From: Candidatus Sulfotelmatobacter sp.
GTDB lineage: Bacteria; Acidobacteriota; Terriglobia; Terriglobales; Acidobacteriaceae
DNA: 64,000 nt
Assembly: GCA_049513475.1 (NCBI GenBank)
Contig: JBEKWC010000011.1
Span: 45,664 to 109,663, forward strand
Direction: 5' to 3'
In this document: piece after piece, positions 11,421 through 64,000 of the stretch
How positions within the stretch are numbered: position 1 is the stretch's first letter
How the letters are laid out: each line of letters starts with the position of its first letter
Notes under the pieces: generated by a model
The model's database searches: none
The model's input: only the letters and a program-made list of their open reading frames with translations
What the model was told of the DNA's origin: nothing
Translations under genes and position numbers: made by a program

Positions 11421-12713
11421 ATGGCTACGGTCGCACGAACGACGAAGGTCAAAATCCCCGCCCTCTTGCCCAGAACGCGAGAAGGACGGGGCACCCGGCG
11501 CGTTCTTGCTCCCACGCGGCACGCGCTTACTTCAACCCCGGAGCCTGGGCGGTTTGGGGTTTATGGCGGGCGGTATGTGCCGGAGACTTTGATGGCGGCG
11601 CTGGAGGAGTTGGAGCGGGAGTATGAGAGGGCGAAACGCGATCAGAAATTTCAGAAGCGGTTGGAATCCTTGCTGCGGAATTATGCGGGGCGTCCTACGG
11701 CTTTGAGTTTTGCGCGGCGGCTTACGGAGAAGTTGGGCGGGGCGAAGATTTATTTGAAGCGCGAAGACTTGCTGCACACCGGGGCGCACAAGATCAATAA
11801 CTGCCTGGGGCAGGCGCTGCTGGTGGAGCGCATGGGTAAGCGCCGGGTGATTGCGGAGACTGGGGCGGGGCAGCACGGAGTGGCTACGGCCACGGTTTGC
11901 GCGCTGCTCGGTTTCGAGTGCGTCGTGTACATGGGCACCGAGGATATGCGGCGGCAGGAGTTGAATGTGTTCCGCATGCGGCTGCTGGGTGCCGAGGTGC
12001 GCGGGGTGGAATCGGGGTCGCGGACGCTGAAAGATGCGATCAACGAAGCGATGCGCGATTGGGTTACGAACGTGCGCACTACGCATTACTTACTGGGGAG
12101 CGTGTTGGGGGCGCATCCGTATCCGACGATGGTGCGGGATTTTCATCGCGTGATTGGGCGCGAGGCGCGGGCGCAGATTCTGAAGGCCGAGGGGAAGTTG
12201 CCGGCGGCGGTGATTGCCTGCGTGGGCGGCGGGTCGAACGCAATCGGGATTTTTTACGAGTTCATAAAGGATAAGAAGGTTCGATTGATTGGAGTGGAGG
12301 CGGGCGGCCGCGGCGAGGCGCTGGGAGAACATGCGGCGCGCTTTCGCGGAGGGTTGCCGGGCGTTTTGCAGGGAACGTTTTCTTACGTGCTACAGGATGC
12401 GGCTGGGCAGATTGCGCTTACGCATTCGGTTTCGGCGGGGCTGGATTATCCCTCGATTGGGCCGGAGCACGCGGCTTTGCGGGATACGGGCCGGGCGGAG
12501 TACGTTCCGGCTTCGGATGCGGAAGCGTTGGAGGCTACTACTTTGCTGGCGCGGACGGAGGGGATTATTCCGGCGCTGGAGTCGGCGCATGCCGTGGCGG
12601 AAGTGATCAAACGCGCACCTGGGATGAAGAAGTCGGATGTCGTGCTCGTGAATGTTTCTGGGCGCGGGGATAAGGATATCGGGATCATGCGGGAGTCCCT
12701 GAACCTGGATTGA
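11421..12713 (+). CDS. trpB: Tryptophan synthase beta chain, with an N-terminal extension of about 35 aa
   Basis: HTGAHKINN (PLP lysine motif), [14 protein letters not shown]. The only plausible start is the ATG at 11421, 2 nt after the trpF stop. Confidence 0.9.
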
Positions 12714-52940: not shown

Positions 52941-54332
52941 ATGCTGATTCATCGCGATTATCTTTTTCCTGCCGAGCCCACCGTGCGAAAGATCGCCCGT
53001 TCGTTGTATGAGCGAGTGCGGGGGTTGCCCATTGTCAGTCCGCACGGTCATACGCAGGCCTCCTGGTTTGCGAGGAACGAACCCTTCCCCGATCCGGCAA
53101 AGCTATTCGTGCAGCCCGATCATTACATTTATCGCATGCTGTACAGCCAGGGGATTTCGATGGAGGAGCTCGAGATCGGGCAGCCTGAGCTGAAGAATCC
53201 GCGAAGAGTGTGGTACATTTTTGCGCGCAATTACTATTTGTTCCGCGGAACGCCGACGCGCCTGTGGCTGGATTTTGCCTTCGAGGAACTATTCGGGCTG
53301 GAGCGCCGACTTTCAGAAGAGACTGCCGATCTGTACTTCGATACGATTTCCGACAAATTGCGCACGCCGGAGTTTCTGCCGCGCGCACTCTACGAACGCT
53401 TTCGTTTGGAAGTGCTGGCCACGACCGATTCGCCGCTCGATTCGCTGGCTGATCACAAGGCGATTCGAGAGTCGAAGTGGAAGGCAAGAATTTTACCGAC
53501 GTTCCGGCCTGATTCGGTGGTCGATCCGGAGTTCTTCGGATTCGCTTCGAATCTCGCAAAACTTGGGCGGAACACCGGGGAAGATACTTACACTTGGACG
53601 GGCTATTTGAACGCGCTGCGGAAAACGCGCGCCCGCTTCGGCGAATTGGGATGCACTGCAACCGATCACGGTCATCCAACGGCGCAAACCGCAAGTCTTT
53701 CTTCAGCGGAAGCTGCCGATTTGTTCCGCAAGGTGCTCGAGGGCACGGCGGACACGCCGCAGCAAGAACTCTTCCGTGCGCAGATGCTGACCGAGATGGC
53801 GCGCATGAGTGTGGAAGATGGCTTGGTCATGCAGATTCATCCCGGGAGCGCGCGCAATCACAATCGGAAGATTTATGGAAAGTATGGGCGCGATGTCGGC
53901 GCCGACATTCCGAGGCCCACGAATTACGTGGACGCGCTGCGTCCGCTGCTGGATAAGTTTGGCAATGAGCCCGGGCTCACGATCATACTTTTCACGCTGG
54001 ACGAATCGACTTACAGCCGCGAACTGGCGCCGCTTGCCGGACATTACCCGTGCTTGCGTTTGGGGCCGCCGTGGTGGTTTCACGATAGTCCAGAGGGCAT
54101 GATGCGCTTCCGCCAACTGGTAACGGAGACTGCCGGGTTTTACAACACCGTGGGATTTAATGATGACACGCGGGCATTCCTTTCGATCCCGGCGAGGCAC
54201 GATGTGGCGCGGCGGGTGGATTGCGCATTCCTCGCGCGACTGGTCGCCGAGCATCGACTGGAGGAGGAAGAAGCTTCGGAAGTGGCGCACGACCTGGCTT
54301 ACCGGTTAGTAAAACAAAGCTACAAGCTGTAA
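52941..54332 (+). CDS. uxaC: Glucuronate isomerase
   Basis: ATG at 52941. LPIVSPHGHT, and a length of 463 aa typical of UxaC. The track ORF start at 52158 is antisense to the fucosidase gene. Confidence 0.88.
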   Translation: MLIHRDYLFPAEPTVRKIARSLYERVRGLPIVSPHGHTQASWFARNEPFPDPAKLFVQPDHYIYRMLYSQGISMEELEIGQPELKNPRRVWYIFARNYYLFRGTPTRLWLDFAFEELFGLERRLSEETADLYFDTISDKLRTPEFLPRALYERFRLEVLATTDSPLDSLADHKAIRESKWKARILPTFRPDSVVDPEFFGFASNLAKLGRNTGEDTYTWTGYLNALRKTRARFGELGCTATDHGHPTAQTASLSSAEAADLFRKVLEGTADTPQQELFRAQMLTEMARMSVEDGLVMQIHPGSARNHNRKIYGKYGRDVGADIPRPTNYVDALRPLLDKFGNEPGLTIILFTLDESTYSRELAPLAGHYPCLRLGPPWWFHDSPEGMMRFRQLVTETAGFYNTVGFNDDTRAFLSIPARHDVARRVDCAFLARLVAEHRLEEEEASEVAHDLAYRLVKQSYKL

Positions 54333-54355
54333 CCTCCGCAAATTGGCGAACTGAC

Positions 54356-55708
54356 ATGGCCTTGGACGACGGTACGGAGCGCGACGCCGCGCCGGCGGCA
54401 GATTCCAAATCATCGCCAGATTCATTTTCCAATTCGCTCCCGGCTTCTTCCCCAACGCAGCTAGGGCGGGTGCGCTGGACGATTTGCGCCATGTTGTTCG
54501 TCGCCACCTCGATCAACTACATGGACCGGCAGGTGATCGCGATCCTTAAGCCAACGCTGCAGCACAGCATTGGCTTGACCGAGGTGAATTACGGTTACAT
54601 CGTCGATGCGTTTCAGATCGCCTATGCGTTTGGCCTGCTGGCGGCCGGGCGGCTGATCGACAGGCTGGGCACGCGCATCGGCTACATGCTGGTGATGGTT
54701 GTATGGAGCGTTTCGGCGATGGGCCATGCGCTGGCCAGCACGGCGCTGGAGTTCGGCTGCGCGCGTTTTTTTCTTGGCCTGGGGGAGTCGGGAAATTTTC
54801 CCGCCGCCATTAAAACCGTTGCGGAGTGGTTTCCGCAGAATGAACGATCACTGGCTACGGGGATGTTTAACTCGGGAGCGAACGTGGGGGCGATTCTGGC
54901 TCCCCTGCTGGTGCCCTGGGTGACGCTGCGCTACGGCTGGCACGCGGCTTTTCTCAGCACGGGCGCTTTCAGCACGCTTTGGATTTTGTGGTGGCTGCGA
55001 AATTTCCGTAGGCCGGGAGAGCACCCTACTATAACCAGCGCGGAGCTGCGGCACATTTATCGGGAAGCTGCGGCGGAGATGGGGCCGTCCGTTCCCTGGC
55101 GACGATTGTTGAGTTGCCGGCAGACCTGGGGATTTTCGATTGCGAAATTTCTCACCGATCCGATCTGGTGGTTTTATCTCTACTGGCTGCCTTCTTATTT
55201 CAGTTCGAAATTCAGCTTGAATCTTTCGCATCTGGGTCTACCGCTGATCGTTATTTACAACGTGTCGGCGGTCGGAAGTATCGGCGGCGGCTGGCTGCCT
55301 GCACCTTTTCGGCGCATGGGCTTTTCACCGACTTCCGCGCGGCTTGCGGCCATGTTGTTCTGCGCTTGCCTGGTTGTGCCTATTTTCTCTGCGAGCCGGC
55401 TCACTTCGGAGTGGGCCGCCATCGCCCTGCTGAGCGTGGCGGCAGGAGCGCATCAAGGGTGGTCGGCGAATCTGTTTACCACTTCCTCCGACATGTTTCC
55501 GCAGCGCGCGGTGGGAGCGGTGGTGGGCATTGGAGGCATGGCGGGATCGATCGGGGGCGCGATCTTTGCTTTCTTCGCTGGACATGTGTTGGAGTTAACG
55601 CATAGCTATGCAGTTTTATTCGGGGTGGCATCGAGCGCATATCTTCTGGCTCTGCTGGTTCTCTATCTTTTCGCGCCGGGGTTGAAGCGAGTCGACTTCA
55701 CAACGTAA
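54356..55708 (+). CDS. MFS sugar-acid (hexuronate-type) transporter
   Basis: ATG at 54356. 12-TM layout with SINYMDRQVIAILKP and G-R-L-x-D-R-x-G-x-R motifs. Confidence 0.8.
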   Translation: MALDDGTERDAAPAADSKSSPDSFSNSLPASSPTQLGRVRWTICAMLFVATSINYMDRQVIAILKPTLQHSIGLTEVNYGYIVDAFQIAYAFGLLAAGRLIDRLGTRIGYMLVMVVWSVSAMGHALASTALEFGCARFFLGLGESGNFPAAIKTVAEWFPQNERSLATGMFNSGANVGAILAPLLVPWVTLRYGWHAAFLSTGAFSTLWILWWLRNFRRPGEHPTITSAELRHIYREAAAEMGPSVPWRRLLSCRQTWGFSIAKFLTDPIWWFYLYWLPSYFSSKFSLNLSHLGLPLIVIYNVSAVGSIGGGWLPAPFRRMGFSPTSARLAAMLFCACLVVPIFSASRLTSEWAAIALLSVAAGAHQGWSANLFTTSSDMFPQRAVGAVVGIGGMAGSIGGAIFAFFAGHVLELTHSYAVLFGVASSAYLLALLVLYLFAPGLKRVDFTT

Positions 55709-55825
55709 GCGGATGTGATCGAGTTCCCCTCATGCCCCTCATGGGTACGGATTGACAGCAGTGTCGGATGCAACTATAAGGGTTACGGTTCAGCGTTCCT
55801 ATTGAGTCCATTCAGAGGGAAGCTC

Positions 55826-57436
55826 GTGTTTGATCGCAGGCAATTGCTGAACATGGCAGCGCAGAGTGCTCTTCTGGCCGGGGTTGCGAAAGGCACTGAG
55901 GCGGCGACGCAGAAACCTTCCGGCGGCGCGCCGGATCAGGATGCTGTTTTCAGCGTGAAACGGTTCGGCGCGAAGGGCGATGGTGAGACGATCGACAGCC
56001 CTGCGATCAACCGTACGATCGATGCGGCCGCGGCTGCAGGTGGGGGCACGGTTTATTTTCCTGCGGGGGTTTACGCTAGTTACTCGATTCGTCTCAAGAG
56101 CAAGATTTGTATTTATCTGGATCAGGGCGCGACGATTCTTGCCGCGTCCACGGCATTGGATGGGACCACGAGCGCCGGTTACGACGCTGCCGAGCCGCAG
56201 AACCCGGAGTGGAATGATTTTCAGGATTACGGGCACAATCATTGGCACAACAGTTTGATGTGGGGCGAGGGTGTTCACGACGTTTCGATTCTTGGTCCCG
56301 GCTTGATTTGGGGCAGGGGCCTGAGCCGCGGCCACTCCGACGATACGGATTTGCCCGACACGAAGAAGCCGGGAGTGGGCAACAAAGCGATCGCGCTCAA
56401 GAACTGCCATAACGTTATCCTGCGCGATTTCTCGATTCTGCAAGGCGGATGGTTTGGAATTCTTGCGACCGGAGTCGACAACTTTACCGTCGACGATCTG
56501 AAGATCGATACCAACCGCGATGGCATCGACATCGATTGCTGCCGCAATGTGCGGGTGTCGAATTGCACGGTGAATTCGCCGGTCGACGATGCGATTTGCC
56601 CCAAGAGTTCGTATGCGCTCGGTTGTGCGCGGCCCACGGAAAATGTCACTATCACGAATTGTTTCGTGACTGGCGGGTATGAGATCGGATCGTTGCTGGA
56701 TGGCACATGGAAGAGATTGCCGGAAAGCTCTCGCGCGAAGTTTACCGGGCGCATCAAGCTGGGAACGGAATCGAACGGGGGCTTTAAGAACATCGCGATT
56801 TCCAATTGCGTGTTTGAGAATTCGCGTGGTTTTGCTTTGGAGACAGTTGACGGTGCCGTCTGTGAAGACATTACATTGGTCGGCATTACGATGCGAGGGT
56901 GTGTGAACTCTCCAATTTTTCTGAGGCTCGGGGCGCGCATGCGCGGGCCTAAGGACAGCGCGCTTGGCCAGATCCGGCGCGTGCTGATCGGCAATGTCAC
57001 CAGTTCCGGCGCGGCGCAGTTGCCGTCGATCATTAGTGGTGTGCCGGGACGCATGGTCGAAGATATAAAGATCAGCGATGTTTATATGCATCAGGTGGGA
57101 GGGGGCGACTCTGTGATGGCTTCGATCCTGCCGCCTGAGAAGGAGAGGGAATATCCCGAGCCTACGATGTTTGGGGTGCTTCCGGCTTGCGGATTTTTTG
57201 TGCGGCACGTGAAGAATTTGGAGATGAGCAATATCGAGATCGCGACGCAGAATCCCGATCGAAGGCCGGCGTTCGCGATGGTGGACGTGGCGGGAGCGGA
57301 TCTGTTTCGGGTGCGCGTGCCTCGGCCGGCTGCGGGGCCAGCTTTCTCTCTACGGCAGGTTTCGGATTTTCGCCTCTTCGGCAGCCCGTTTGTACCCGAC
57401 CAGAGTTTTCCGCAAGTCGATGAGAGGCTTCTATGA
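55826..57436 (+). CDS. Glycoside hydrolase family 28 (polygalacturonase-like), Tat-type signal
   Basis: GTG at 55826 with GAGGGA upstream. FDRRQLL twin-arginine signal. Parallel beta-helix motifs (NRDGIDID, GTESNGG, RIK). Confidence 0.8.
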   Translation: MFDRRQLLNMAAQSALLAGVAKGTEAATQKPSGGAPDQDAVFSVKRFGAKGDGETIDSPAINRTIDAAAAAGGGTVYFPAGVYASYSIRLKSKICIYLDQGATILAASTALDGTTSAGYDAAEPQNPEWNDFQDYGHNHWHNSLMWGEGVHDVSILGPGLIWGRGLSRGHSDDTDLPDTKKPGVGNKAIALKNCHNVILRDFSILQGGWFGILATGVDNFTVDDLKIDTNRDGIDIDCCRNVRVSNCTVNSPVDDAICPKSSYALGCARPTENVTITNCFVTGGYEIGSLLDGTWKRLPESSRAKFTGRIKLGTESNGGFKNIAISNCVFENSRGFALETVDGAVCEDITLVGITMRGCVNSPIFLRLGARMRGPKDSALGQIRRVLIGNVTSSGAAQLPSIISGVPGRMVEDIKISDVYMHQVGGGDSVMASILPPEKEREYPEPTMFGVLPACGFFVRHVKNLEMSNIEIATQNPDRRPAFAMVDVAGADLFRVRVPRPAAGPAFSLRQVSDFRLFGSPFVPDQSFPQVDERLL

Positions 57437-58668: not shown

Positions 58669-59403
58669 TTACGCTCCTGCGCCGGCAGCCTTTGCCAGAG
58701 CAACGGTGCGCGGAGCCTCGCCGCTAATCTGTGCCGCCAAGCCAAAGCAGACGCGGTAACTGCGGTAGATCCCATACATCACCAAGAATACCGATAACGG
58801 CGCTTGCCATCCGAAGCGATGGGCTGCGTGCAAGACCATCGAGGTCACGCCCGCGCTCAATACATAGTAGGGAAATGACAGGTGGAGGATGCTGAGCCAT
58901 ACGGTGTGGAACGCGGCACCTTCCGCCAGCTTGATGATGCCGGCCACCGGAAGTGTCTGTCCCAGCAAGAACGCGGCAGTCGCCAAGGTCAGCAGGAGCG
59001 GTTGCGACGCCCAACTCTCCCCCGCGCTCCCCGCATGCCAGGCCAGGTTGGCGAGGCTGGTGGCAAAGGCCATCATGCTTACGTTGAATATCATTCGCTC
59101 CGGCTTGAACTTCCTTGGAGAGGCCGGCCAGCATTGCACCAGGGTCGAGGTGCAGGCGATCGAAACCGCTTCGAGCGCGCTGAGATTTACCACCGCCAGC
59201 AGGAGAAAGGGCAGGTTGACCGACATGTTGCCGTTGATGCCGGGCAACCTGACTTTCATTCGCGAAGTCGCCGCCGCCAGGGCTAAGACAGCCAGTGCGT
59301 AAGAGCCATGAAAGGCGTGGCTGGTGTGGCTAGCGTAACCCGCGAGGCCAACTGCGGCCAGCACCATGCCCCCGATGAAGAGTGGAATTCGCTGTGTGTT
59401 CAT
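58669..59403 (-). CDS. Polytopic membrane protein of unknown function (about 7 TM)
   Basis: ATG at 59403, 36 nt downstream of the protease stop. 244 aa, almost entirely hydrophobic helices. Confidence 0.6.
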   Translation of the reverse strand: MNTQRIPLFIGGMVLAAVGLAGYASHTSHAFHGSYALAVLALAAATSRMKVRLPGINGNMSVNLPFLLLAVVNLSALEAVSIACTSTLVQCWPASPRKFKPERMIFNVSMMAFATSLANLAWHAGSAGESWASQPLLLTLATAAFLLGQTLPVAGIIKLAEGAAFHTVWLSILHLSFPYYVLSAGVTSMVLHAAHRFGWQAPLSVFLVMYGIYRSYRVCFGLAAQISGEAPRTVALAKAAGAGA

Positions 59404-59439: not shown

Positions 59440-61227
59440 TTACTTTTGGTCTCCGTAGACCAATGTCATAGCCGCATCCGAACTGGTCAGCGCCGTGCCC
59501 CAAAGGACGCTATCGGCGGCATCTGTGGTTGAGCCCCAGACCACGCTAAAGCCTTGCAGCGTGCTGGTTCCCCACACCACCGAACTGCCCCAGAGTACCG
59601 AGCTGCCGGAGACGTTCGTGCCCCACACCACGGAAGTGCCCCACAGAACCGAGGTTCCCCAGAGCACCGAACTCCCGGCTACTGCCGAGTTGCCGTTGAC
59701 CAACGATACCTTCTTGGTGGAGGAGTTGTAGGAAACGCTGGGCGATAATGCCGCCCCAACATTCGAAGGAGCGGTATCGGTGTTCGCCAGGGCGGCGGCC
59801 AGGTCCAGATAGCCGGCGCCGATGGTGAATATGTCGTAGTAAGACGTATAGGTCTGTCCTGTCGTAGGATCTACGGCCACGCTCGAGGTGGGGAAGGTCT
59901 TGTAGGCGGTCTTCATCAGCCGCGCTTTGACCTGGTCCGGGGTGAGCGAGGGATGAGCCTGAAGCAACAGGGCCGCAGCGCCGGAGGCCGCCGGAGTCGC
60001 CATGCTGGTGCCGCTCAGCATGAAGTAGTCGTTGGAGAAGCCCGGAATCATATTTCCGGGATAGGCGGTGGACAGACTGCTATCGTGGGCGACCAGGGAA
60101 ACCACCTGATTGCCAGGAGCGACGAGGTCAGGTTTGACCACGTGATCGTACATCGTGGGACCCTTCGAGCTGTAGCTGGTAATGGTGTCGTCGGTGCGGC
60201 TCAGAGTTCCTTGCGTGTTCATGGCGCCGACCGTGATCACGTAAGGATCGTTGCCAGGGGCGGTAATGGTACTGTAGCCGTTGCTGCCGTCTACACTGAT
60301 GCGGCCATAATTACCGGCGGCGACCACTACCACGATGCCCGCCTTCCAGGCCGATTCTACTGCCTGGCAGAGCGGGTCCTGCGCGTAAGGGACGTAAACT
60401 CCGCGGCCCAGCGAGAGGTTGATGACCCTGATGTTGTACTGGTTCTTGAGGGCGATAGCTCGCTGAATGGCGGCAATCACTTCGCTGTCGGTGCCGCTGC
60501 CGTTGCCGTCGAGCACGCGCAGATCGATGAGGTTGGCGTTGTAGGCCACGCCGCCGTAAATTTGGCCGGAGACCCAGCCGCTACCCGCGATGATACCGCC
60601 GACGTGGGTGCCATGACCGTAGGTGTCATGGACCAGCATGCCCTGCGAGTTGTACTCGCTGGCGCCGGTGAAATCCTGGTGATAGAGGACGCGATCCCAA
60701 ATGTCGATGTGCTGGTCATCGATGCCGCTGTCAATCACGGCGATGCCCATGCCGGTGCCGATGTAGCCGGCGTTCCAGGCGGCGCTCACGTTCATGGCTG
60801 CGTCGGTGTATTCGTCCATCGCTCTCAACGGATGGTCGACGCCGATCGAGGCCACGTCGGGATCCGCTTCCAGAGCCGGCAAGGACTTGACCGGAACCGT
60901 GAAGGCAAGACCTTTCACCAAGCCCAGCCTGTGATTCAGATGGCCACCGAGGTTCAGCGCCCGGGCTTCATGCTCGGCTCGCGGGGTCTGGTTGTACTGC
61001 ACGATTACCCTTACGGTCTCGTTGGCAGCTGCGGTGCCTTGTTGCGCTCGCGCCACGGCGGGTGCGAGCTCCTGGGCAAACTTGCCTCGCGGCGACTGAG
61101 TTTGCCAGTCCTGGGCGGAGGCCCCGCCGGCCAATAGCACAACCAACAGCATGCTGAGCCGTTTTCCCCAAGTCGCACTGTGGCGCTGCTTGGGTGTCGA
61201 TTTTCGTGTGTTACGCGTGCACCGCAT
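59440..61227 (-). CDS. Secreted S8 (subtilisin-like) serine peptidase with C-terminal SV(L/V)WG hexapeptide repeats
   Basis: ATG at 61227 with GAGGGG upstream. Signal peptide. Catalytic contexts AVIDSGID, HGTHVGGI and GTSMATP. The longer track ORF to 61437 would cover the candidate promoter. Confidence 0.85.
   Translation of the reverse strand: MRCTRNTRKSTPKQRHSATWGKRLSMLLVVLLAGGASAQDWQTQSPRGKFAQELAPAVARAQQGTAAANETVRVIVQYNQTPRAEHEARALNLGGHLNHRLGLVKGLAFTVPVKSLPALEADPDVASIGVDHPLRAMDEYTDAAMNVSAAWNAGYIGTGMGIAVIDSGIDDQHIDIWDRVLYHQDFTGASEYNSQGMLVHDTYGHGTHVGGIIAGSGWVSGQIYGGVAYNANLIDLRVLDGNGSGTDSEVIAAIQRAIALKNQYNIRVINLSLGRGVYVPYAQDPLCQAVESAWKAGIVVVVAAGNYGRISVDGSNGYSTITAPGNDPYVITVGAMNTQGTLSRTDDTITSYSSKGPTMYDHVVKPDLVAPGNQVVSLVAHDSSLSTAYPGNMIPGFSNDYFMLSGTSMATPAASGAAALLLQAHPSLTPDQVKARLMKTAYKTFPTSSVAVDPTTGQTYTSYYDIFTIGAGYLDLAAALANTDTAPSNVGAALSPSVSYNSSTKKVSLVNGNSAVAGSSVLWGTSVLWGTSVVWGTNVSGSSVLWGSSVVWGTSTLQGFSVVWGSTTDAADSVLWGTALTSSDAAMTLVYGDQK
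59494..59673 (-). repeat. In-frame 18-nt tandem coding repeats (SVLWGT-type hexapeptides)
   Basis: SVLWGT SVLWGT SVVWGT ... SVLWGS SVVWGT ... SVVWGS ... SVLWGT in the last 77 residues of the peptidase. Confidence 0.8.
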
Positions 61228-61271: not shown

Positions 61272-61287
61272 TGCACGGGCGAGGCCA
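61272..61287 (-). promoter_or_regulatory. Candidate sigma-54 (-24/-12) promoter for the S8 peptidase operon
   Basis: The minus strand reads TGGCCTCGCCCGTGCA. The GG and GC dinucleotides have the canonical spacing of TGGCACG-N4-TTGCW. It lies 44 nt upstream of the ATG at 61227, with a sigma-54 activator gene adjacent. Confidence 0.45.
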
Positions 61288-61445
61288 ACTTCGATTGCTT
61301 GTAAGTGATTGATGGCAATGGAGCGGGGAGAAATGCTGCGGTCTGAGGCGAGACAGCTTGTCCCAAACATGAAGGGCAGGAGACGTTTTGTCCCATCGCC
61401 CAGGAGGCTGTTGCGAAAACTCGTGCCGTCGGCGCAAATGGGCTT

Positions 61446-61505
61446 ATCCCACTTCCGGCTGCCCGGCACTGCCGTGCCCGGCTCTCTCCTGCCGCTTCTT
61501 CGCGG
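61446..61505 (+). repeat. REP-like element, family C copy 2
   Basis: CCCACTTCCGGCTGCCCGGCACTGCCGTGCCCGGCTCTCTCCTGCCGCTTCTTCGCGG aligns with 634-690. Confidence 0.55.
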
Positions 61506-61895: not shown

Positions 61896-63659
61896 TCACT
61901 GCATCAGTTCCCAGCCGTCTTGCTTCATCTTGCGGTTGACCCACTGCTGAAGTTTGGCCATGGTTGCTGGAGCTATGCCGGCTAATCGAATTCCCGCTAG
62001 TCCGCCGCCCTCCGACCAGGCAATGTAGCCTTGGGCTTCGATAGGAATATCTTCGTCGGGAAGAACGAAGCTTGCCTGCAGGACTCCCTCCCACTTCGCC
62101 GATGGGGCGAGTCCCTCCACGCCGATGCCGCTCGCGCTCAGGTTTACGGCATTCAGCCGGATCGCTTCGCCGCTGGAATTCTTCAGAGAGACAGGAAAGT
62201 GAACTTTTACCCGATAGGTTTTTTGCTGTTCCAACCCCAGCGCGCCCAAGCTTGGAGGCTTTTCGCCGGCGGGGCTGTTGATTTGATATTCGCGCAATTT
62301 GCGGCTTAGAGTGCGGCGCGAAATGCCCAGCTGTTCCGCCGCCAGGGCGCGATGGCCTCCGGTTCTCTCCAGAGCCTTGCGGATCATTTGTTCTTCCATG
62401 GCTTCGAGGTCGGTGCCGTTGTCGAGGGCAACGGCATATTCGGGAGGCGCGGCCGTGGTGGTTGGCGGAGGCGCTTGCTCCGCCTGTTGCGCGATTTCGA
62501 CGGCGACTTCTTCGACGCCGATTTTTTCCTCCGCCGATTCCACGCTGAGTTTCGCGATGACGTTGCGCAGTTCGCGGATGTTGCCCATCCAAGGATGAGC
62601 CTGCAACCTACGCAAAGCCTCCTCGCTGAAGTTTTTTCCCGGAGCCTTGAGGTTCAGAAAATATCGCGCCAGGACGGCGATATCGTCCGGGCGTTCGCGC
62701 AGAGGCGGAACGCGCAGGTGAAACTGGCTGATGCGATGAAACAAGTCTTTGCGGAAGCGGCCCTCTTTTACCGCGGCTTCGAGATTCTGATTGGTGGCCG
62801 CGACCACGCGTACATCGACTTTCACTTGGCGATTGCCGCCCAGGCGGAAGTAGGGCTTGCCATCGAGAACGCGCAGCAGCTTCACCTGAATATGCGCCGG
62901 TAGTTCGCCGATTTCGTCGAGGAAAAGCGTGCCTTTATCGGCCATTTCGAACAGGCCGGGCTTGCCCGAATCCGCGCCGCTGAATGCGCCTTTCTCATAA
63001 CCGAAGAGTTCGCTCTCGACGAGGTGTTCGGGAAGTGCGGCGCAGTTGACCTCGACAAACGGCAGCTTGCTGCGGAAGGAAGATTTGTGAATGGTGTGCG
63101 CCACCAACTCCTTACCGGTGCCAGTCTCTCCGGTGATGAGAACGGTTTCGTTGTGGGTGGCGATGCGATCGACCAGGCCCATGAACTTGTGCATGAGCAG
63201 GCTGGCGATAATAAAGCGAGTGCCGTCGAGATCGCGCTCCACCACCACGGCCCGGGCCGCTCCGGCGGCGGATTCCGGCGTCTGCGGGGAACTCATCGGC
63301 AGCGCCCGAGCATCCCGCTCCGCGGGATCGAATGACACGATGACGAAACCGGCCGGCTCTGAATCGTGGCCGCGCAGGAGCGAGATTGAAACCGGCAGAT
63401 CGATCATCGTCCCGGATTTGGTTCGCTGAACAACGCGGCCGTGGAAGCGTTGGTTGGCCCGCACTCGATTTAAGAGGCAATCCGGTTCATCGCCGAATTC
63501 CTTTCCGAGCAAAGCTACCATCCTGCCGATAAGTTCGTTAGCGCTGTAGCCGTAGACCCGCTGCGCCGAGAGGTTGCAGCTGGTGATTTCGCCTTCGAGG
63601 TCGGTGGTGATCACGCCGGCCGGAAGCTGATCGAGTATCGCCGCGGGCAAGAGCTGCAT
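61896..63659 (-). CDS. Sigma-54-dependent activator: PAS - AAA+ - Fis-type HTH - C-terminal PilZ-like domain
   Basis: PAS (LPAGVITTDLEGEITSCN..), Walker A GETGTGKE, GAFSGA (GAFTGA variant), Walker B LFLDEIGE, HTH LGISRRTLSRKLRE. A further ~120 aa contains NLSASGIGV, matching the (D/N)xSxxG PilZ motif. An alternative upstream GTG start lies at 63884. Confidence 0.8.
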   Translation of the reverse strand: MQLLPAAILDQLPAGVITTDLEGEITSCNLSAQRVYGYSANELIGRMVALLGKEFGDEPDCLLNRVRANQRFHGRVVQRTKSGTMIDLPVSISLLRGHDSEPAGFVIVSFDPAERDARALPMSSPQTPESAAGAARAVVVERDLDGTRFIIASLLMHKFMGLVDRIATHNETVLITGETGTGKELVAHTIHKSSFRSKLPFVEVNCAALPEHLVESELFGYEKGAFSGADSGKPGLFEMADKGTLFLDEIGELPAHIQVKLLRVLDGKPYFRLGGNRQVKVDVRVVAATNQNLEAAVKEGRFRKDLFHRISQFHLRVPPLRERPDDIAVLARYFLNLKAPGKNFSEEALRRLQAHPWMGNIRELRNVIAKLSVESAEEKIGVEEVAVEIAQQAEQAPPPTTTAAPPEYAVALDNGTDLEAMEEQMIRKALERTGGHRALAAEQLGISRRTLSRKLREYQINSPAGEKPPSLGALGLEQQKTYRVKVHFPVSLKNSSGEAIRLNAVNLSASGIGVEGLAPSAKWEGVLQASFVLPDEDIPIEAQGYIAWSEGGGLAGIRLAGIAPATMAKLQQWVNRKMKQDGWELMQ

Positions 63660-64000
63660 GTCCGCACCCAGGTGGGATGAGCTCGGTTCCGCGGGGCCGG
63701 CCAAAACCTGAACGCCGGATTTGTATGAATCGGTCGCCTTTGCCACGCGTTCGTCGGCCCTCGCAACCTGCCATCCTTGCGGCTCGTAAGGTCGGATGGA
63801 TCCGGCAGATGCAGTCTCCCGCGATCGCGATCCGCAGAAGCTGACCTGATATTGTCGCTTGGGAGCGTCGCGTGCAGCCAGCACTCTCTCGCAAATTTGG
63901 AACGAAGGTAACTTCCCTCAAAGATCAAATTTCCGGCCTGCCATGCGGGCCACACCACGGGCGCTGACACCAACGTAACTGCAATCAATCCTTATGGTAA

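Follow-up and report, generated by a model that had tools for sequence, protein, structure and literature searches.

To our knowledge, the characterised regulators of the bEBP type (for bacterial enhancer-binding protein) that respond to cyclic dimeric guanosine monophosphate, or c-di-GMP, all bind the nucleotide without a PilZ domain, and most characterised PilZ effectors act post-translationally. FleQ binds it on the AAA+ domain, and VpsR does not use sigma-54. A fusion of an enhancer-binding protein with a PilZ domain is as such already known from MXAN_2902 of Myxococcus xanthus, whose PilZ domain is predicted not to bind c-di-GMP and whose deletion mutant shows no phenotype (PMC8316039, PMC8844925). 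Two large surveys devoted to the diversity of PilZ domains contain no discussion of a sigma-54 architecture. Here, we describe an activator of this kind encoded in a 64,000-nucleotide stretch of DNA from Candidatus Sulfotelmatobacter sp., referred to as the window in the following. This sigma-54 enhancer-binding protein has a real PilZ domain behind its helix-turn-helix (HTH) domain; it belongs to a large acidobacterial family, whose Pfam domains are already precomputed in public data, and its likely target is the gene of a secreted S8 subtilase with a predicted sigma-54 promoter. We hold the architecture, the family and the arrangement of enhancers, promoter and subtilase gene, taken jointly, to be very probably correct. 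What the PilZ tail senses or contacts can be stated with less certainty and is weighed below.

All positions are those of the window and lie on its minus strand unless stated otherwise. The activator is encoded by a single unbroken open reading frame (ORF) at 61896-63659, yielding 587 amino acids when counted from the ATG at 63659, and the plus-strand translation of the same interval contains stops throughout. Upstream, the reading frame stays open as far as a GTG at 63884. An earlier note on this DNA, which gives no strand, had let the gene begin at ATG 63659, a start that is not favoured by the N-termini of homologues. Close homologues have no methionine at this position and keep the 29 residues upstream of it, with a conserved 'AKSTESxKSG' stretch (63660-63746), and two homologues (P0005 and P0008) begin exactly at the position of GTG 63746. 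Because of these three observations, the true start is probably GTG 63746, 29 codons further upstream, which would result in a gene of 616 codons at 61896-63746 (stop codon at 61896-61898).

In the translated protein, numbered here from the ATG, a PAS sensor domain (residues 6-108; 63336-63644) is matched by PF00989 (45 bits, E 1.2e-11), PAS_9 (37 bits) and PAS_4 (35 bits). It is followed by the sigma-54 interaction AAA+ domain (Sigma54_activat, PF00158; residues 153-315; 62715-63203; 225 bits, E 4.4e-67) with Walker A (GETGTGKE, 63108-63131), the GAFSGA loop (62973-62990) and Walker B (LFLDEIGE, 62904-62927), by the AAA+ lid (AAA_lid_14, PF25601; residues 321-399; 62463-62699; E 5.8e-17) and by a Fis-type HTH (HTH_8, PF02954; residues 418-458; 62286-62408; E 1.5e-15). 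Both Walker motifs are conserved across homologues. A linker of about 19 residues with an invariant 'LG' (62229-62285), delimited by the tail alignment and a segment of low predicted local distance difference test score (pLDDT), connects the HTH to the PilZ domain. Including its C-terminal helix, the latter spans 61899-62228 (Pfam core 61935-62228) and contains QQKTYR (62211-62228) where RRxxxR would be expected, as well as NLSASG (62127-62144), which corresponds to (D/N)xSxxG. With NCBIfam models, generic bEBP similarity alone was observed, under all equivalog cut-offs. The order of PAS, AAA+, Fis-type HTH and C-terminal PilZ domains, which the earlier note had read from motifs, is upheld by the Pfam domain matches, and all motifs named there (GETGTGKE, GAFSGA, LFLDEIGE, LGISRRTLSRKLRE, NLSASG and QQKTYR) were found in the translated sequence.

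The identity of the tail was addressed by profile and fold. PF07238 matches residues 478-575 with 26.8 bits in the whole protein and with 29.7 bits (E 8e-7) in the isolated tail, thus passing the Pfam gathering cut-off of 22.5 bits. An AlphaFold2 model of residues 462-587, built with an alignment of 33 diverse tails, reached a pLDDT of 84.8. A disordered linker is followed in it by a short helix that covers EQQKTY, by six strands (model residues 23-32, 38-46, 50-54, 65-71, 78-88 and 93-99) and a long C-terminal helix (103-119); pLDDT values are below 50 for the first 11 residues (462-472). This predicted six-stranded barrel with its C-terminal helix agrees with the canonical PilZ topology as given by Galperin and Chou (10.1101/814665). 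A Foldseek comparison with the PDB returned exclusively PilZ domains as top matches (probability 1.0, best E-value 3.5e-6), namely MapZ (5y4r, 5xly), MotI (5vx6), Alg44 (4rt0, 4rt1), BcsA, YcgR, PlzA and MrkH. Since a search of PDB sequences with the tail sequence profile gave zero matches, the tie to solved PilZ structures rests on the Pfam match and the fold.

Both the tail and the HTH-to-tail junction are present in all of the best 120 homologue clusters (54-100% identity), which were drawn from four independent sources (JGI, NCBI, ENA and Logan assemblies) and nearly all of which carry a precomputed PF07238 match. Further, two peptide patterns specific to the tail were searched for in GTDB species genomes and resulted in 360 confirmed stretches with the tail architecture; the best 80 of these belong almost entirely to Acidobacteriota (Terriglobales, Acidobacteriaceae, Ca. 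Sulfotelmatobacter). The fusion had been proposed to be unusual. A PilZ domain behind the HTH is indeed real, but it is not an isolated oddity, since the recurrence of the architecture in at least 120 clusters and 360 GTDB stretches places the activator, on sequence grounds, in a large conserved Acidobacteriota family.

In the alignment of the 33 diverse tails, 22 positions are invariant. N506, S508 and G511 of the NxSxxG motif (NLSASG in the window) are among them, as are several glycines, Q479 and R483; conservation is also high in the C-terminal helix 'LQxWxNxKMKxEGWE'. Owing to its limited sensitivity, a word-indexed search yielded one match when the tail alone was the query, and an exhaustive profile search was used instead, in which 1.84 billion representatives yielded 1305 proteins at E ≤ 0.001. 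Canonical relatives with the sequence E-R-R-R-Y-F-R align in register with E-Q-Q-K-F-F-R of the activator family, and the spacing to NxSxxG is 22-23 residues in both groups. Because register and spacing match, Gln479 can be assigned to the position of the first Arg of RxxxR and Arg483 to that of the second. Based on this alignment, the tail is a descendant of canonical RxxxR PilZ domains.

A census of the first-Arg position was carried out for the 150 best representatives of the profile search. None of 37 HTH-linked PilZ domains carries the first Arg, whereas 41 HTH-less relatives have RxxxR. In the HTH-linked tails, Gln is found at this position in 22 cases and K, S, H, P, E, A or D in the others. 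Judged from this difference, losing the first Arg while keeping the second Arg and NxSxxG characterises the bEBP-attached PilZ clade as a whole and is not the outcome of local decay. The earlier note had recognised the (D/N)xSxxG half as present and had found the RxxxR half not evident; the former is upheld, and the latter is incomplete, with Gln479 replacing the first Arg and Arg483 kept. Random decay is not what is seen, given that Gln479 is invariant in the 33 diverse tails. In a literature search for QxxxR-type PilZ domains, no precedent was found.

A predicted regulatory region was identified upstream of the S8 subtilase gene (ATG at 61227), which follows the activator gene on the same strand. 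In the three closest loci, the S8 upstream regions share a conserved TGGCCTCGCCCGTGCA element (GG-N10-GC) and GGGACA-N3-TGTCCC palindromes. In the window, the distal predicted enhancer, or upstream activating sequence (UAS), is the palindrome GGGACAaaaCGTCTC at 61380-61394 and the proximal one the palindrome GGGACAagcTGTCTC at 61350-61364. Such a tandem pair, with the two palindromes 29-30 bp apart, is conserved in 34 loci. At a fixed offset from them, the predicted sigma-54 promoter occupies 61272-61287, 62 nt past the proximal palindrome; its start precedes the S8 ATG by 60 nt. A TGGC-N8-GTGCA element directed into the S8 gene is found 60-62 nt past the proximal palindrome in 33 of 35 pairs. 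Among the 44 S8 starts preceded by 300 nt of sequence or more, the palindrome is present at 42 and the promoter element at 39, and 34 show the palindrome combined with a TGG-N9-TGC[AT] promoter at a start-to-start offset of 75-77 nt. In 1.51 Mb searched on both strands, this combination occurs 38 times in total, including the 34 at S8 starts. Palindromes and promoter track the S8 gene across at least three gene orders. Upstream of the predicted start site, the palindrome centres lie at distances of ca. 93 and 123 nt, which are typical of bEBP enhancers. These regularities make a strong case that the S8 gene has a sigma-54 promoter and enhancer sites in tandem, and they point to this gene as the likely target of the PilZ-tailed activator.

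Other searches for sigma-54 sites were negative. A scan of the window for the consensus TGGCAC-N5-TTGCW with up to two mismatches gave 22 matches compared with 31 expected, i.e. no enrichment, and none of the matches was intergenic upstream of a cluster gene. No consistent sigma-54 site was found over 67 loci in the intergenic region between the bEBP gene and the divergent HD-GYP gene described below.

Several additional elements were observed at individual loci. One locus (L005) has the tandem palindromes a second time, at 1559-1665, together with a good GG-N10-GC element (TGGCATTCCCGGTGCA), after the gene of an ATP-binding cassette (ABC) ATPase. This copy sits where other genomes place S8, and no ORF of at least 100 amino acids follows; it is probably a relic of an ancestral gene order, or else drives a small unannotated product. 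In a subclade (L013, L034, L035, L055, L061, L072 and others), TGG(A/C)xGTGCAGxTGCA, with GG-N10-GC spacing, is located ca. 45 nt upstream of the HD-GYP/GGDEF start and may represent a second sigma-54 promoter, for the operon of the c-di-GMP enzyme. This element is absent from the clade of the window. A perfect palindrome GGGACAaatTGTCCC lies between a PAS-less activator gene and the divergent HD-GYP/GGDEF operon at 7828-7842 of L083, which hints at autoregulation or at control of this operon in some lineages. In the window itself, the ca. 670 bp spacer between the activator stop and S8 contains a GGCAC-GGCA-GTGCC inverted repeat at 61466-61479 (12268-12281 of the source contig introduced next).

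As the window ends 340 bp upstream of ATG 63659 and 254 bp upstream of GTG 63746, the source contig (L001) was added to the analysis; window coordinates equal 73747 minus the L001 coordinate. The divergent intergenic region covers 63747-64000, and about 17 bp past the window end begins a plus-strand gene for an 828-residue MASE9-HD-GYP-GAF-GGDEF protein, which heads an operon divergent from the activator gene. Pfam assigns a weak MASE9, HD-GYP (HD_5, 8.5e-40), GAF and GGDEF (9.7e-41) domains to this enzyme, and HHExxDGxGYP (HHEKWDGSGYP), GGDEF and the RxxD I-site, read from the sequence, are all intact. Its GGDEF domain carries the canonical GHxxGD signature. A Ser at that GGDEF position marks Hypr cyclases, which make cyclic GMP-AMP (cGAMP), and a cGAMP/Hypr-GGDEF partner was dropped as a candidate for this reason. 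The gene is followed by two ABC permeases, a family-5 solute-binding protein and an ABC ATPase, which together form a peptide ABC importer. On the other side of the activator, the secreted S8 subtilase (595 amino acids; 59440-61227; PF00082, 2.8e-57; signal-peptide-like N-terminus) is directly followed by a MASE9-only membrane protein of 244 amino acids (58669-59403; MASE9 24.0 bits, cut-off 24.3). The latter and the membrane domain of the 828-residue enzyme are paralogous, with ca. 40% identity.

Gene context was compared for the best 80 of the 360 GTDB loci. The HD-GYP/GAF/GGDEF gene is found in 74 of them and is nearly always directly and divergently adjacent, and each of the four transporter genes is present in 67-71. 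An S8 gene was seen in 41 loci, many loci being cut at that point. The positions of the S8 and MASE9-only genes differ by clade yet remain inside the cluster. Since the neighbouring GGDEF/HD-GYP enzyme is conserved, a functional tie of the tail to c-di-GMP appears likely. The distant PAS-less relatives P0133 and P0252 lie in the same HD-GYP/GGDEF neighbourhood, which argues that the linkage between PilZ activator and c-di-GMP enzyme is old and persistent.

Some features of the surrounding region were noted in passing. The 244-residue MASE9-only protein could pair with, or compete against, the MASE9 sensor domain of the 828-residue enzyme. Residues ~515-580 of the S8 protein (59440-59750) form a run of 'S(S/T)V(L/V)WG(T/S)' repeats of about 8 residues with no Pfam match, which may constitute a surface-anchoring or beta-solenoid module. 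Beyond the cluster and on the other strand, a pectin/uronate set (GH28 polygalacturonase, major facilitator superfamily transporter, UxaC isomerase) is located at ~52941-57436 (L001 16311-20806) and is kept only in the closest relative (L004). A 53-residue antisense ORF downstream of the activator was taken as spurious, with a homologue in none of the 80 loci.

Seven more distant representatives of 440-466 amino acids consist of AAA+, lid, HTH_8 and PilZ domains without an N-terminal sensory domain, their AAA+ domain starting at about residue 18. Two of the clusters have named Acidobacteriota members, one Candidatus Korobacteraceae and one Acidobacteria/Acidobacteriota bacterium. In these PAS-less proteins, PilZ is the only domain outside the catalytic and DNA-binding core, and for this reason we argue that the tail is a control element and not decoration. 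PspF, which likewise has no N-terminal regulatory domain and shares the AAA+/HTH core with the PAS-less relatives (P0133, P0252 and others), is restrained in trans by PspA; the PAS-less relatives instead have a PilZ domain at the C-terminus and must be controlled otherwise.

We propose the following mechanism. The HTH of the activator would bind the GGGACA-N3-TGTCCC palindromes upstream of S8, and the ATP-driven activator ring would open the sigma-54 promoter, leading to expression of the S8 protease and the MASE9 protein. Peptides released by the protease could then be imported by the co-clustered ABC importer. The PilZ tail would act as a regulatory input that couples the activator to the adjacent c-di-GMP enzyme: it would bind c-di-GMP made or removed by this enzyme, non-canonically and probably weakly, and binding would shift the position of the adjacent HTH or change ring assembly. 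Protease expression would thereby be tuned to the cellular c-di-GMP state, with PAS providing a second cue. Retained, non-canonical c-di-GMP binding by the tail is favoured because NxSxxG and the second Arg are invariant, because the domain descends from RxxxR PilZ domains and because of the linkage to a cyclase/phosphodiesterase. Our confidence in this step is tentative, somewhat short of an even chance.

A number of points weigh against the proposed mechanism. The first Arg of RxxxR is required for c-di-GMP binding in characterised PilZ domains, and because it is lost in every HTH-linked tail of the census, canonical binding by the tail is doubtful. The prediction made for the PilZ domain of MXAN_2902 points in the same direction. 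On the promoter side, constant co-localisation is the sole basis for assigning the palindromes to this activator, and the -12 element of the predicted promoter is GTGCA, not TTGCA. Finally, Ser replaces Thr in the sigma-54 contact loop of the window protein and of 119 among 120 homologues, so that the loop reads GAFSGA instead of GAFTGA. This conservative change is found family-wide, and conservation of the -24/-12 promoter suggests that the variant may be functional.

A rival explanation that we regard as a serious though not a probable one assigns the tail the role of a nucleotide-free protein-protein adaptor, docking on the MASE9-HD-GYP-GAF-GGDEF enzyme or on its own AAA+/HTH domains. The membrane enzyme would then sequester and release the activator in the fashion of a trigger enzyme. 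Precedents exist, as the PilZ protein of P. aeruginosa (PA2960) and the Xanthomonas PilZ-FimX pair act by contacts with c-di-GMP-type domains independently of nucleotide, and PilZ nucleotide binding is not needed in the Xanthomonas RpfG(HD-GYP)-GGDEF-PilZ(XC_2249) complex (10.1101/814665, PMC3749722). The clade-wide absence of the first Arg, the interface-like conservation of the 'LQxWxNxKMKxEGWE' helix and the linker 'LG', and the constant adjacency of the HD-GYP/GGDEF gene would all fit such a role. What it leaves unaccounted for is the invariance of NxSxxG and the second Arg, which are not known to serve any purpose other than contacting the nucleotide; more widely, PilZ domains that do not bind generally lose both motifs. 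NxSxxG in particular is often unconserved in non-binding PilZ domains, e.g. in the tetramer-forming class (10.1101/814665).

Two further readings keep a ligand but change how, or which one, it is bound. In the first, which we consider unlikely, the PilZ domains attached to an HTH make up a 'half-site' class of their own (xxxR plus NxSxxG), which would sense something other than c-di-GMP in its canonical mode, for example pGpG or GMP from the adjacent HD-GYP enzyme, or c-di-GMP only if sandwiched against the HTH or DNA, and would directly gate enhancer binding or ring assembly. If true, the half-site PilZ domain would be the sole control of the ATPase in PAS-less members. In the second, slightly less probable still, QxxxR plus NxSxxG reflects a changed specificity, for pGpG, GMP or another guanine nucleotide or cyclic dinucleotide. 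This would explain why Gln is conserved and not decayed at the first-Arg position and why the guanine-type motif is kept, and an HD-GYP enzyme, whose reaction proceeds via pGpG to GMP (PMC3749722), is encoded next door. The literature search without a QxxxR precedent and the variability of the first-Arg position at wider range (Q, K, S, H, P, E) speak against it. So does the neighbouring GGDEF domain, which is of the canonical GHxxGD type and does not carry the Ser of Hypr cyclases. Lastly, that the tail is a missed-stop, frameshift or annotation artefact or a functionless evolutionary relic can be dismissed with near certainty, given the continuous ORF, a junction shared by 120 clusters from four data sources and 360 GTDB stretches, 22 invariant tail positions and a confident fold prediction, while no support was found and the sole related point is a start codon probably set 29 codons too far downstream.

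If the tail senses a nucleotide, as we tentatively favour, the family would represent a new second-messenger route to transcription, with PilZ placed directly behind the HTH of a sigma-54 activator. The clade-wide change from Arg to Gln amounts to a natural experiment on the RxxxR requirement. Further, the family offers a testable set consisting of a receptor candidate, a linked cyclase/phosphodiesterase, predicted enhancers, a promoter and a target gene, and it provides a first model of how soil and peat Acidobacteriota, which are abundant and mostly uncultured, might regulate a secreted protease and the uptake of peptides.

Compared with known systems, MXAN_2902 is similar to the window activator in being a sigma-54 EBP with a PilZ domain judged to be without a complete c-di-GMP signature. 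It belongs to another phylum and was compared by its published description; the conserved motifs are reportedly missing from it, in contrast to the window family, which retains NxSxxG and the second Arg, and no linked c-di-GMP enzyme or regulon is described for it. FleQ, VpsR and EpsI/Nla24 resemble the window activator as AAA+/Fis-HTH proteins of the activator type with c-di-GMP-dependent output (PMC6158489, PMC8316039). They differ in being without a PilZ domain. After Walker A, the window protein reads KELVAHTIH, with His-Thr where FleQ has Arg-Asn, so that a FleQ-like site is presumably absent, as far as a comparison by eye can tell. MrkH of Klebsiella pneumoniae, which was also matched by Foldseek (5ejl, 5kgo), is alike in that PilZ directly controls DNA binding or transcription; it has PilZ domains in tandem, however, and neither an AAA+ nor an HTH domain. 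The PilZ adaptor proteins contact c-di-GMP-type domains, and HD-GYP and GGDEF domains are here encoded beside the PilZ-bearing gene, but the adaptors are stand-alone proteins that regulate pili, whereas the PilZ domain of the window is fused to an activator and has half of the binding motifs. New here are a half-site signature that holds for the whole clade, a partnership with a MASE9-HD-GYP-GAF-GGDEF enzyme that is conserved, PAS-less members with PilZ as their sole accessory domain, and the predicted enhancers, promoter and subtilase target.

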